A stretch of 55,490 nt of DNA from IMG/VR virus record IMGVR_UViG_2872185964_000005. One strand, given 5' to 3'. A program made the position numbers and the translations under genes. Origin of the DNA: a virus. Its lineage: Duplodnaviria > Heunggongvirae > Uroviricota > Caudoviricetes. A model generated the notes under the pieces. It did not search any database, had not been told where the DNA came from, and worked only from the letters and a program-made list of their open reading frames with translations. The stretch's first letter is position 1, and each line of letters opens with the position of its first letter. This document shows positions 28,045-41,371 of the stretch, in pieces.

Positions 28045-28389
28045 TCAGGCCAGCGGTGGAGTCTTCAGAGAACCCGTAATTATTCCCGGTAGTTTTCCTC
28101 TGTAGGTTATCAACACATCCTGCGCCTCTAAAATTACGGGGCGCTTTTCCGGCAACGGACCATCCCCTTCACATAACCCGGCAGCAACATCCATGAAAAA
28201 CTGCTTCGCCTGCTTTTTCGCCTCAGCTTCGTAAAACTCCAGCGTGGCATATTCAGTACGGTCAAGACTAATCGCCACATCTGGCAACAACAGTGACGGA
28301 TACCCACCAATTTCCAGTGCCACAGTAACAGTAATCTTATTCGGGTAATTATTTATCCCTTTAACAACCAGTTCGTATTTTTTCTTCAT
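28045..28389 (-). CDS. Hypothetical protein between holin and endolysin
   Basis: 114-aa ORF, no transmembrane segment; gene order resembles holin-ydfR-lysozyme in some E. coli cryptic prophages. Confidence 0.4.
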   Translation of the reverse strand: MKKKYELVVKGINNYPNKITVTVALEIGGYPSLLLPDVAISLDRTEYATLEFYEAEAKKQAKQFFMDVAAGLCEGDGPLPEKRPVILEAQDVLITYRGKLPGIITGSLKTPPLA

Positions 28390-28955: not shown

Positions 28956-29138
28956 TTAAGGAGTAACGGGTTCTTCGGGTTTGCTTCCGGCTGACTGACT
29001 GGCGCTGATTTTCTCAGCGGCCCTTTTATCAATCTGCCTGCACCAGAAATCGCGCACAGCCCTGTACCCACCCGAAAGAAGATACAGCACACAGACCGCC
29101 GTACAGAAGTACAGCATCACCTGATGAATAAATGTCAT
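28956..29138 (-). CDS. Hypothetical small membrane protein (60 aa)
   Basis: MTFIHQVMLYFCTAVCVLYLLSGGYRAV... single hydrophobic helix. Confidence 0.4.
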   Translation of the reverse strand: MTFIHQVMLYFCTAVCVLYLLSGGYRAVRDFWCRQIDKRAAEKISASQSAGSKPEEPVTP

Positions 29139-29276
29139 AATTTCTTACCGTTATGGTTGACAATGAGAATTGTTTTCATTTAAAAACCAATGTACGAAAG
29201 CATCTTTTCTTTACATTCTCCATTGGGATTACCTCCGCCAGCTTCCATTCCTGCCGCTGGCGGCTTTTTTTAGCAA

Positions 29277-31154
29277 TTATGCGGCTGCTCCAGCTTTGTT
29301 TGCTTTAACTTCCACCGTATCAATAAGTACAGGGTAGGTTTCTGCACTACCTGTAATATCCGTAATGACAAACCTGTTGAGTCCATTAGCAGTATTGGCC
29401 CATTTCACCAGGTCAAACGCCTGTCCATCCACACCATCAAGCACCGGAGTAACATTAATGCTGTTACTGCCCTTAAATTTAAATGCAAGCGTATGCCAGT
29501 CATGGTCGAATGCGCCAAACGTGCCAAGTTCTTTTTGTTGATTAACTGTATGATGGTATGCAACATTAATACTGGCTTTATCTGTCTGGACAAAGAAAGA
29601 ACTCAGATGGCCTTCACCACCCTCACCCGGCCATTCCGCTATTCGCCAGTACAAACCAAAGGCATACTTGTTTCTGGTTGTCTCAAGATTGACGTTTTCG
29701 GGGATTTTAAACCGGACAGCAATTTCCCCGCCTTTTTCCAGTAAAAGTTTTGCCTTGTCTGCAGCAATATCACAGTACATTGACCAGGATTTCGCGCTGT
29801 TATTTTTCTCAATTCGCAGAGCTTTATTGCCGCTGTCATCAACCAGTGTGCGTCTGCCATACATACCGTCCCAGCCATAAGGTTTCAGCTGATTGTCTGT
29901 AGCTTTTTTGGCATCGTAAAAAATTACAGACTCTGAGGTGGTAACCGGCCTGTCTGGAACAACCACCCCGGCAGTACCATTAACAAACGCAGAAGACTTA
30001 CCCGCGCAGCTCAGAATCGCCGTTGCCAGACGGTCGGAAATAATCCCACGGCGAGCCCATGAACTGAAATGGCTCGCCCTGTCCTGTGACGTCCAGGTGG
30101 CTGAGCTGTCACGCCATTTCGAACCGTAATAACCGATACCCGGAATGTCCGGGTCTTCTTCCGGTTTGTTCGTCGGCACATTCACCCCGTTCTCATCGGT
30201 CATGAACGGTACGAAATGGATATTCTTTTCCGTTTTATTTTTATAGCTGCCGTACACCGTCTGGTACGTGGATTCGTTCTTCTGCTTCCAGAAATACGTC
30301 GTGTCCCCGCATATCCAGGGAACACCACCAGCAGAGCCACCGACGCACTGGCCTGCCATATCCGCCAGGTCTGCACGGAATTTATCAACCAGCGCACCAA
30401 ACTGTGCGGCATGATTTGCCGGCGTACCGCCAAAATCAAATTCCCCCTGCATCCACACCACGGCAAACAGCACATTTTTCGGGTTCTTCTCCAGTGCCGC
30501 TTTTGTTCGACCGATAAGGTCCTTATACAGCGGCTTGTCCACACCCCAGCGGGTTGAATTCTCCGAGGCACCACTCGCGTCACTGTATGTGCCATCAGCT
30601 CCGGTGGTGAACGCTGAACCACCACGACAGCACGGAACCAGCAGAATGCCCGCATTCGCCGGTATAAACGGCAGCAGTTTTTTGGCGATATGCAGCCCCT
30701 GCCCACGGTTCCGTACTGCCCTTTGACAGGTCCGCTTTCGGATGGTTAAGACGGCTCATGTCCTGCACATCATGCAGACAATGGTCCGCCGGAATGATGT
30801 CGTTATATTTGCATGCTGCACCGCCCGGTGTCACCGTACTGCGACGCGCCAGTTGCTTAATACGCGGGTCCGGACGGTCATATGTCCCGGCAGCGGAAGG
30901 CCTTCACCATACGACATGCCGTTTGACTGCCCTGCCAGAACCACAACAAAGTAATACTCCGGGTTGCTGGTGGCGCTGATTACTGCACCTTCTGCTGCAA
31001 TCGCCTGCATCAGAGTATAAGGGGTTATGGCCACCGGACTACCAAACGGCTGCCAGCCCTCTTTCAGTTTATGTGTCAGCTTTTCCGCAAGATCTGACGG
31101 CGACGCCGCCCTGACAACATCATAGTGTTTAAATGCCATGGTTCTTTCCACCAT
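29277..31154 (-). CDS. nanS: Prophage sialate O-acetylesterase NanS-p-like (SGNH hydrolase), reading frame broken at least twice (apparent frameshifts)
   Basis: N-terminus MAFKHYDVVRAASPSDLAEKL...YYFVVVLAGQSNGMSYGEGLPLP (SGNH GQSN motif); ORFs 30831-31154, 30595-30834, 29277-30542 colinear. Confidence 0.75.
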
Positions 31155-31735: not shown

Positions 31736-32013
31736 GGAGTTTACTCACATCTGACAAAATCAATATAAACAGCCCTCCGGAGAGGGCTGGAGAGTGGCGC
31801 TATGTGCCATTGCATGGTGCCGGGTGCCTCCCGGTGAATTCAGTACCAGCACCTGAATCCGCGATTATCCCATATACCTACTCGCTGATTGCCCCTCCGC
31901 ACAGGGGATTCACCATGCCAGTTTCTTTTAACAAACTCCCCGCAAACCAGACAACAGTCAACCGCCTGAATTGTGAGACATTTAAAAAAAAGCCCGCAAA
32001 AGCGAGCCAGGGA

Positions 32014-32090
32014 AAATAAGTGTGGCGCGTTCTACTGTATTCGAACCAGTGACCGATTGCTTAGAAGGCAATTGCTCTGTCCGGCTGAGC
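32014..32090 (-). tRNA. tRNA-Arg (anticodon UCU), one acceptor-stem and one T-stem mismatch
   Basis: Cloverleaf readable by eye: D-arm TAGCTCAGCCGGACAGAGCA, anticodon loop CUUCUAA, T-loop TTCGAAT, 3' GCCA. Confidence 0.6.
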
Positions 32091-32099
32091 TAACAACGC

Positions 32100-32189
32100 A
32101 GGATACAGATAATGAACCGCCTTCGGGACCCGAACTCCGCGCAACCAGCTTCGAAGGCTGGCGCTCTTTCCTGATGAGCTAATGGCGGT
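32100..32189 (-). other. tRNA-like sequence (possible degenerate tRNA-Arg, anticodon UCG); T-arm does not fold cleanly
   Basis: D-arm TAGCTCATCAGGAAAGAGC and anticodon arm CCAGC-CUUCGAA-GCUGG are intact, T-stem pairing is poor. Confidence 0.3.
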
Positions 32190-32262
32190 ATGTGATAGTG
32201 GCCCTTGCTGGATTTGAACCAGCGACCTGGCGATTATGAGTCGCTCGCTCTCACCACTGAGC
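32190..32262 (-). tRNA. tRNA with CAU anticodon (Ile2/lysidine type or Met), prophage ileZ-like
   Basis: GGCCCTTTAGCTCAGTGGTGAGAGCGAGCGACTCATAATCGCCAGGTCGCTGGTTCAAATCCAGCAAGGGCCA folds as a canonical cloverleaf. Confidence 0.75.
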
Positions 32263-32320
32263 TAAAGGGCCGGGAGCAGAATAATAATGGTGCGTAATTA
32301 ATTCTGCAATCTCATCCGTT

Positions 32321-40962: not shown

Positions 40963-41127
40963 CCATAGTGACATCCTCATGTGCGAATTTTGAAAACTCA
41001 CCACATGGGACGCCAATCACAGAGGTGGTGAGACGTACAGGGTTGGCGTAACCGGTCGCACATGACCCCGGCGCATCTTTCGATGCCCCTGCACGCCCCA
41101 CCATAATTTGGATGTGAGGAAACGTGC

Positions 41128-41152
41128 GCAAAAAAACCGCTGAAGCGCGGTT
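41128..41152 (-). terminator. Intrinsic terminator between the two Rha-family genes (tR1-like position)
   Basis: Minus-strand aaccgcgc-uucagc-ggutt stem followed by uuuuuuu. Confidence 0.5.
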
Positions 41153-41371
41153 ATGCGCATGTGCGAATTTCAGGACGCCAATCCCGGCACCCGCTTTATA
41201 AGGTGCGGAGACAGTGTAACGTCCCGAAATTGCAGAATCAATATTTGGTCTTGAAATGATCATATAGCTGCTGATATCTTTAGAACTGTTCTTGGATGTT
41301 TCGGAGCCGTTTTATGCGAAACAGCTCCCCGTTATTGATGTTGAGTGAGCCGGGTTACTCCCGGCTTTTTT

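Follow-up and report, generated by a model that had tools for sequence, protein, structure and literature searches.

A probable unannotated relative of the small RNA Esr41 at the esterase/lysis junction of a lambdoid prophage

Between a sialate O-acetylesterase gene and the lysis genes of a lambdoid prophage, on the strand opposite to the late operon, lies a short promoter–terminator unit. It is very probably a real regulatory small RNA (sRNA) gene of about 80 nt, an unannotated relative of Esr41. We studied it within a stretch of 55,490 nucleotides of viral DNA (IMG/VR record IMGVR_UViG_2872185964_000005), here called the window. Our preferred reading, to which we assign a probability of about three in four, is that of a stand-alone ‘moron’ sRNA gene of the late region, expressed in the lysogen, dependent on Hfq and acting in trans against ribosome-binding sites (RBS) as a paralogue of Esr41. 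What we say of the transcription of this allele, its exact 5′ end, its binding of Hfq and its targets draws on its relatives. Esr41 (= EcOnc14) itself is an Hfq-dependent sRNA of the O157:H7 island SpLE1/OI-43; it has been described as an island sRNA that is specific to EHEC and governs iron uptake, resistance to colicins, LEE expression and motility.

Architecture of the transcription unit

The unit consists of the following elements.

29157–29162, plus strand: −35 hexamer TTGACA, an exact consensus, found also in Esr41, PasA, PasC and EcOnc52
29180–29186, plus strand: A/T-rich, non-canonical −10 region
29192–29271, plus strand: predicted sRNA transcript of 80 nt, its 5′ end placed by the TTGACA+30 register and its 3′ end by the U tract
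29215–29227, plus strand: seed 1, AUUCUCCAUUGGG, predicted to be single-stranded, complementary to RBS/start-codon sequences and matching the M1 seed of Esr41
29232–29239, plus strand: seed 2, CCUCCGCC, an anti-Shine–Dalgarno sequence that overlaps the 5′ arm of the terminator and corresponds to the M2 site of Esr41, CCCUCCGCC
29235–29263, plus strand: terminator hairpin with an 8-bp stem and a 13-nt loop, its arms being CCGCCAGC (29235–29242) and GCTGGCGG (29256–29263)
29265–29271, plus strand: terminator T tract, the U7 tail of the RNA, separated from the stem by one C and predicted to be the likely Hfq-binding 3′ end

An earlier note, made from the sequence alone, had described a promoter and a terminator here. 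All of the features that it described exist, but their true positions lie 8–10 nt to the right of those given. The TTGACA placed at 29149–29154 is found at 29157–29162 (read from the sequence and re-indexed by script), the 8-bp GC-rich stem placed at 29225–29253 has its arms where they are listed above, and the T run following it is T7 rather than T6. The proposed TTTAAA/TTAAAA −10 after a spacer of 16–17 nt survives as TTAAAA (29180–29185) after 17 nt, or TAAAAA (29181–29186) after 18 nt. This −10 is poor, and for that reason a consensus promoter scan called no promoter at the locus. A terminator scan reported only a shorter alternative hairpin, 29251–29263, with a T tail.

Is the arrangement more than chance? 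We counted perfect GC-rich stems of 8 bp or more with six or more Ts behind them. The 55-kb window, both strands taken together, has one, and it is the candidate's terminator; a dinucleotide-preserving shuffle has 0.005 on average. Not one of 200 shuffles had a perfect TTGACA in the 130 nt upstream of such a terminator. The unit is non-random.

If the −10 is so poor, where would transcription begin? The reported 5′ ends of Esr41, PasA and PasC each lie exactly 30 nt past the end of their own TTGACA. For Esr41 the 5′ end, defined as the start of the Rfam match and of the expression construct of Waters et al., is at position 2048 of its locus (L005), with TTGACA at 2013–2018; the 5′ ends of PasA (2600 in its locus, L001) and PasC (1910 in L002) are both at the +30 position. 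The −10 hexamers of these relatives are equally weak and stand in the same register: TATATA in Esr41, CAGAAA in PasA and PasC, GAAAAA in EcOnc52. This shared register is our main argument that the weak −10 is nevertheless used. Applied to the window, it would place the start at G29192 and yield an 80-nt RNA ending at 29271. A covariance model built from 14 alleles, with Esr41 left out and the window sequence included (model R1), aligns to exactly 29192–29271 with 107 bits.

In the predicted fold of this RNA (−18.5 kcal/mol, z = −2.2) a weak 5′ hairpin is followed by ACAUUCUCCAUUGGG, which stays open, and then by terminator and U tail, the same layout as in Esr41. A conserved second hairpin between seed and terminator (GGG..CCU) was considered and rejected: its pairing register varies among alleles, and the bases concerned are those of the seed.

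Genomic context and spread

The unit is flanked by two minus-strand genes.

28956–29138, minus strand: DUF1378 protein, the first small late ORF before the holin and lysozyme genes (annotation taken from the 98%-identical O104:H4 locus)
29277–31154, minus strand: SASA-family sialate O-acetylesterase of nanS-p type, disrupted by two in-frame stops and convergent with the sRNA

The start codon of the DUF1378 gene (29136–29138) is 19 nt from the −35 hexamer on the opposite strand, and the stop codon of the esterase (29277–29279) begins five bases past the T run. The esterase frame matches the intact 636-aa protein of O104:H4 from end to end at 83% identity; two in-frame stops interrupt it near codons 108–135, where a stretch is out of frame, so that the gene is probably a pseudogene. 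The annotated O104:H4 copy carries on one strand Q, the SASA-family esterase, DUF1378, DUF826, holin and lysozyme. The gap between esterase and DUF1378 is unannotated in that copy, as is the locus in RefSeq and phage records. Between holin and lysozyme the window has a 114-codon ORF (28045–28389, minus strand) that the O104:H4 locus lacks, holin and lysozyme being adjacent there.

How widespread is the unit? Over 146 nt the locus shows 100% identity with E. coli O104:H4 prophages; the figure is 99% for phage phiSTEC1589-Stx1c and about 85% for 933W and for Sakai VT2/Sp5. The Sp5 allele lies on the minus strand of NC_002695.2 at approx. 1272086–1272167. Of 5426 complete E. coli genomes, 848 (approx. 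16%) carry the unit, with a median of two copies. Its carriers include Stx1, Stx2a and Stx2c phages, 933W and Sp5 among them, as well as the O104:H4 prophages. A loose-pattern search of genome contigs listed 120 loci, all 120 of which were chance matches in unrelated taxa; model R1 found no second copy within the window.

Other elements of the window were noted in passing. Just upstream of the esterase lies STnc100, a PasD-related prophage sRNA (RF02076, 118 bits; 31759–31947, minus strand), and beyond it, still upstream of the esterase, are three tRNA genes (32026–32271). There are no stx genes between the tRNAs and the esterase, from which we take the window to represent a non-Stx or Stx-less lambdoid prophage with the late-region layout of an Stx phage. 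Three identical ALIL frameshift pseudoknots (RF01497, 116 bits each; 18091–18207, 24624–24740 and 44750–44866, minus strand) point to three copies of an IS3-family insertion sequence (IS629/IS1203-like) in the 55 kb. At 41021–41206 (minus strand) a C4 antisense RNA (RF01695, 75 bits) adjoins isrK (RF01394, 62 bits); together they form, within the prophage, a module of P1/P7 type for the control of immunity or antirepressor.

Kinship with Esr41

To which known RNA is the unit related? At gathering thresholds Rfam reports nothing at the sRNA locus. The best of 4227 families is Esr41 (RF02676), which scores 20.7 bits in the window and 28.1 bits in the Sp5 allele, both far short of the family's gathering threshold of 102 bits; a true Esr41 scores 108.6 bits. 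By blastn, window and Esr41 are 76.6% identical over 64 nt. In the opposite direction, the best non-self match of model R1 is Esr41, at 26.4 bits with a rough E of 8e-4.

The two RNAs have in common the TTGACA −35, the 5′ end at +30, a length of about 75–80 nt, the terminator with U7, and a core that may be written ..UUCUCCAU(G/U)GGG..CCUCCGCC.GC..GC.GGCG-U7. They differ in the 5′ third, where the window RNA has a weak hairpin and an extra UUUUCUUUA stretch, in a one-base insertion inside seed 1 of the window RNA, and in its longer loop. Whereas Esr41 has a stable 5′ hairpin, GAUGCU..GGCAUC, the window RNA has a weak alternative one, and a sister allele has GAUG..CAUC. The gap is bridged by intermediate alleles. 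One subtype starts with GAUGUCGAAAGCAUC and has the GAUG..CAUC 5′ hairpin, to be compared with Esr41's GAUGCUCUAGGCAUC; another allele has CAUGGGUAUUACC where Esr41 has CAUGGGGUAUUCCC.

The homes of the two differ as well. Esr41 lies in SpLE1/OI-43 downstream of iha, the window unit in a lambdoid late region, and blastn finds no homology between their flanks. We considered whether the SpLE1 neighbourhood of Esr41 might be a decayed esterase/DUF1378 locus, and rejected the idea: no protein or DNA similarity extends outside the RNA itself.

Variation among prophage copies

Which parts of the unit are held constant? In a first harvest of copies from IMG/VR the search pattern fixed the seed bases, so that the invariance of the seed in the resulting alignment (A2) is circular. 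A second harvest was anchored outside the RNA, on the DUF1378-proximal DNA and the −35 only. In it TTCTCCAT is kept in all 129 copies, and 119 of the 129 match the full core pattern. TTGACA is kept in all harvested copies examined; because the harvest patterns and the regular expression required it, independent evidence for conservation of the −35 comes from Esr41, PasA, PasC and EcOnc52 alone.

Variation among copies falls on the 5′ part and the loop rather than on seed and stem, and just before the predicted start both the length and the sequence vary. In the most divergent allele (L128/L130) the 5′ hairpin is unrelated and the loop runs to 27 nt, but GUUCUCCAUGAGGAUACUCCUCCGCCAGCG, the 3′ arm of the stem and U7 are retained. 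Conservation and covariation of the hairpin in related prophages had been proposed as a check on the candidate. Conservation was found, the stem being kept over 132 copies with a mismatch in two of them. Covariation is confined to one pair: pair 8 of the stem is C–G in most of the 132 copies, U–A in one group (L126/L134) and U·G in L133 and L127, consistent with a passage from C–G to U–A through U·G. A single covarying pair is weak evidence, since the copies come from closely related E. coli and Shigella prophages with little variation. The divergence between alleles (approx. 85% identity) is no lower than in the neighbouring coding DNA. Constraint is visible in the pattern of variation only, not in strong covariation.

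Beyond the T tract the homology of the unit stops, and at least four unrelated esterase 3′ ends follow it in different prophages. This indicates that the T run is a mosaic boundary and that the sRNA travels with the DUF1378 side.

Seeds, targets and a proposed mechanism

What might such an RNA bind? In Esr41 the M1 mutation changes GGG to CUC in CAUUUUCUCCAUGGGGUAUUCCCUC and is compensated in chuA (..uuuucCCCauggagaaucg..) and cirA; the M2 mutation changes CU to UC in UUCCCUCCGCC and is compensated in bfr (..gcggAGgga..) (Waters et al., PMC5286369). Against seed 1 of Esr41, UUCUCCAUGGG, the window has AUUCUCCAU-U-GGG, that is, nine contiguous matches, a one-base insertion and then GGG. Of the nine bases of seed 2 the window keeps eight.

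We compared duplex energies (RNAduplex) with those of shuffled sequences. The chuA–Esr41 duplex, at −24.3 kcal/mol, was equalled by 0 of 300 shuffles, and the chuA duplex with the window RNA, at −19.7 kcal/mol, by one of 300; that with PasC, at −9.6 kcal/mol, was equalled by 217 of 300. In its predicted pairing with chuA the window RNA employs the seed of Esr41. The duplex of the window RNA with bfr, at −21.2 kcal/mol, is no better than shuffles (27 of 300). The seed target motif ATGGAGAA occurs four times in the window against two expected, which is not significant. The chuA gene is missing from many E. coli lineages.

In the lysogen, we propose, host sigma-70 RNA polymerase would start about 30 nt past TTGACA, near G29192, and halt at the GC hairpin and U7; the product would be about 80 nt long. 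This RNA would be an Esr41 paralogue, with a weak 5′ hairpin, the single-stranded seed AUUCUCCAUUGGG, a U tail and, where the terminator begins, the second seed CCUCCGCC. Most likely it would bind Hfq. It would pair in trans with RBS/start-codon regions (..CCCAUGGAGAA.. or ..GGAGG..) and so repress translation. Its likely targets would be those of Esr41, the iron-uptake and iron-storage genes chuA, cirA and bfr, with consequences for colicin Ia/Ib sensitivity. We favour this mechanism because the seeds of Esr41 are kept and because the chuA pairing uses one of them.

Other small RNAs of the same slot

The slot between the esterase and the DUF1378/holin lysis genes is also occupied, in antisense orientation, by PasA, PasC and EcOnc51/52. 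PasA and PasC of EPEC E2348/69 have been validated by Northern blot, RNA-seq and RIL-seq; on NC_011601 (minus strand) PasA extends from 743499 to 743415 (85 nt; a minor form of 236 nt extends to 743264) and PasC from 1290909 to 1290832 (79 nt); both are antisense to their neighbours (‘> < >’) and Hfq-dependent on Northern blots, and EcOnc51 and EcOnc52 are their counterparts by homology in EHEC (Pearl Mizrahi et al., PMC8550237 Table S6). EcOnc51/52 are known in O157 Sakai as Hfq-CRAC peaks (PMC4104026 Table S2), and the EcOnc52 peak, 1181998–1182075 (minus strand), covers the Sakai Sp4 unit. The respective homes are PP2 (PasA) and PP5 (PasC) of E2348/69, and Sp12 (EcOnc51) and Sp4 (EcOnc52) of Sakai. 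PasA is suspected of being processed from a longer precursor, and its seed overlaps the terminator stem (bioRxiv 10.64898/2026.05.13.724894).

The window unit resembles PasA, PasC and EcOnc52 in its antisense orientation, its TTGACA+30 register, its GCCAGC/GCUGGC terminator and its U7; in PasC and EcOnc52, as in the window, the T run directly abuts the esterase stop codon. The sizes of PasA, PasC and EcOnc51/52, 79–85 nt, are near the 80 nt predicted for the window RNA. The body of the RNA and the seeds, on the other hand, are unrelated, and the body cannot be aligned. The PasA seed GCCAGCACCU, complementary to the target motif CUGAUGCUGG, is absent from the window RNA, which has CCGCCAGCUU at the equivalent place.

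Could the unit then be a variant of PasA or PasC? This was ruled out. A blastn (also blastn-short) search with PasA, PasC and EcOnc52 gave no match at the locus, and model R1 matches the three in the terminator only, with E values of 1.5–6.4. By the criterion of Zhu et al. for PasA/PasC similarity, a blastn match with more than 75% query coverage, the window unit falls outside. On sequence comparison we regard it as a different allele of the PasA/PasC slot, Esr41-like in sequence and PasA/PasC-like in position. The suggestion that a plus-strand sRNA gene of about 80 nt, complete in itself, runs antisense to the late operon thus finds support in the slot, in the homology with Esr41, in the architecture with its promoter register and in the pattern of conservation.

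Wider parallels exist. The anti-sRNAs AsxR/AgvB and EcOnc27/STnc100/PasD are likewise Hfq-bound sRNAs of prophage late regions that have their own promoters and terminators, conserved positions and interchangeable alleles. They differ from the window unit in occupying the neighbouring moron site, upstream of the esterase and thus on its other side. AsxR and AgvB, moreover, are 51–60-nt sponges for core sRNAs, and STnc100/PasD are about 170–200 nt long and lie on the sense strand, in both cases unlike the window unit.

Alternative explanations

Might the unit act mainly in cis, as an antisense to the late transcript or through convergent transcription that, in the lysogen, damps leaky read-through into the lysis genes, any trans targets being secondary? 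At 29192–29271 the RNA is, by construction, a perfect complement of the late mRNA, and its promoter faces the late operon at the short distance from the DUF1378 start given above. The RIL-seq partners of PasA include the 3′ ends of adjacent esterase genes (PMC8550237), and all alleles keep both the orientation and the abutment to the esterase stop. Yet Esr41, with the same core, works in trans from SpLE1, where it has neither esterase nor lysis neighbours, and the invariant part is a short seed rather than the whole complementary stretch. The RBS of DUF1378 is outside the span of the RNA. Late transcription, moreover, is strong and Q-antiterminated, and a weak convergent promoter is an unlikely brake upon it. 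We consider action mainly in cis unlikely.

Is the hairpin with its T tract no more than a terminator or an insulator, or does a longer antisense transcript that began elsewhere end there? On this view TTGACA would be a relic, conserved but inactive, and the allele would give no discrete 80-nt RNA with its own function. The non-canonical −10 would fit this, as would the suspected processing of PasA from a longer precursor and its 236-nt read-through form (bioRxiv 10.64898/2026.05.13.724894; PMC8550237). The Sp5 allele, in addition, is missing from the Hfq-CRAC orphan (EcOnc) peaks of Sakai, which we count as weak negative evidence because of the distance-to-feature filters and the repeat copies in that genome. 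On the other side, the distance from TTGACA to the 5′ end is identical in three validated relatives, and the seed is invariant in 129 copies in which the flanking parts of the RNA vary. Nor is there an upstream plus-strand gene in need of a terminator: between 26.5 and 29.1 kb all ORFs with homologues are on the minus strand. This explanation we judge distinctly unlikely.

That the region encodes a very small protein is most improbable: plus-strand ORFs of 51 and 55 codons and a minus-strand ORF of 15 codons do exist, the last with an ATG (29223–29221) behind a good Shine–Dalgarno sequence (GGAGG-N8-ATG), but the plus-strand ORFs (29153–29308 and 29170–29337) start in or before the promoter, run across the terminator and are without their ATG in Sp5 (that of 29153–29308 is absent there), the minus-strand ORF (29223–29176) shrinks from 15 codons here to four in Sp5 and Esr41, and its resemblance to an RBS is to be expected on the strand opposite an anti-RBS seed. 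The view in the earlier note that no protein-coding ORF fits the unit is borne out by the course of the plus-strand ORFs across promoter and terminator and by the lack of conservation of the small ones.

The junction as a cassette site

What does the locus add? Lambdoid prophages already carry PasA/PasC and EcOnc51/52 at this place, so that the unit is a further member of a known group of prophage sRNAs and no new type of element. Slot, family and mechanism being known, the gain is incremental, one unannotated member. We found no publication that describes this allele as an sRNA; the EDL933 candidates sRNA103–110 (Gruber & Sperandio 2015) stood outside the comparison.

The sequences suggest that common lambdoid and Stx prophages, among them those of O104:H4 and O157:H7, serve as vehicles for an Esr41 paralogue with the same seeds. 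Should the RNA be expressed, prophage copies may buffer what the loss of esr41 does to a mutant, the sRNA repertoires of pathogenic E. coli are under-counted, and the ‘Pas’ slot holds at least three seed classes.

A broader reading, which we advance tentatively and hold to be slightly less than an even bet, makes the esterase/lysis junction a modular cassette site for sRNAs. Its scaffold (TTGACA promoter, +30 start, GCCAGC/GCUGGC terminator and U7) would be fixed, and seeds of the PasA, PasC/EcOnc52 and Esr41 types would have been exchanged within it. Esr41 itself would be one escaped copy of an allele that about 16% of the complete E. coli genomes have. Were this so, lysogeny by the phages that carry the allele would itself rewire iron uptake and colicin Ia/Ib sensitivity, and single deletions of esr41 in O157 would be buffered by prophage paralogues.

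Some features of the EPEC loci were observed in the course of this work. Upstream of the PasA and PasC promoters, and convergent with them, is a sense-strand hairpin with a T tract (CCGTCAGTG..ACTGGCGGCTTTTTT; plus strand, 2734–2763 of the PasA locus and 2045–2074 of the PasC locus); the window allele has no counterpart. In E2348/69 PP2 a second complete promoter–terminator unit, nearly identical to EcOnc52 of Sakai, follows PasA (2350–2480 of the PasA locus, minus strand) and abuts the esterase stop, so that PP2 holds two tandem sRNA cassettes. The 236-nt minor form of PasA ends at the terminator of this second unit.
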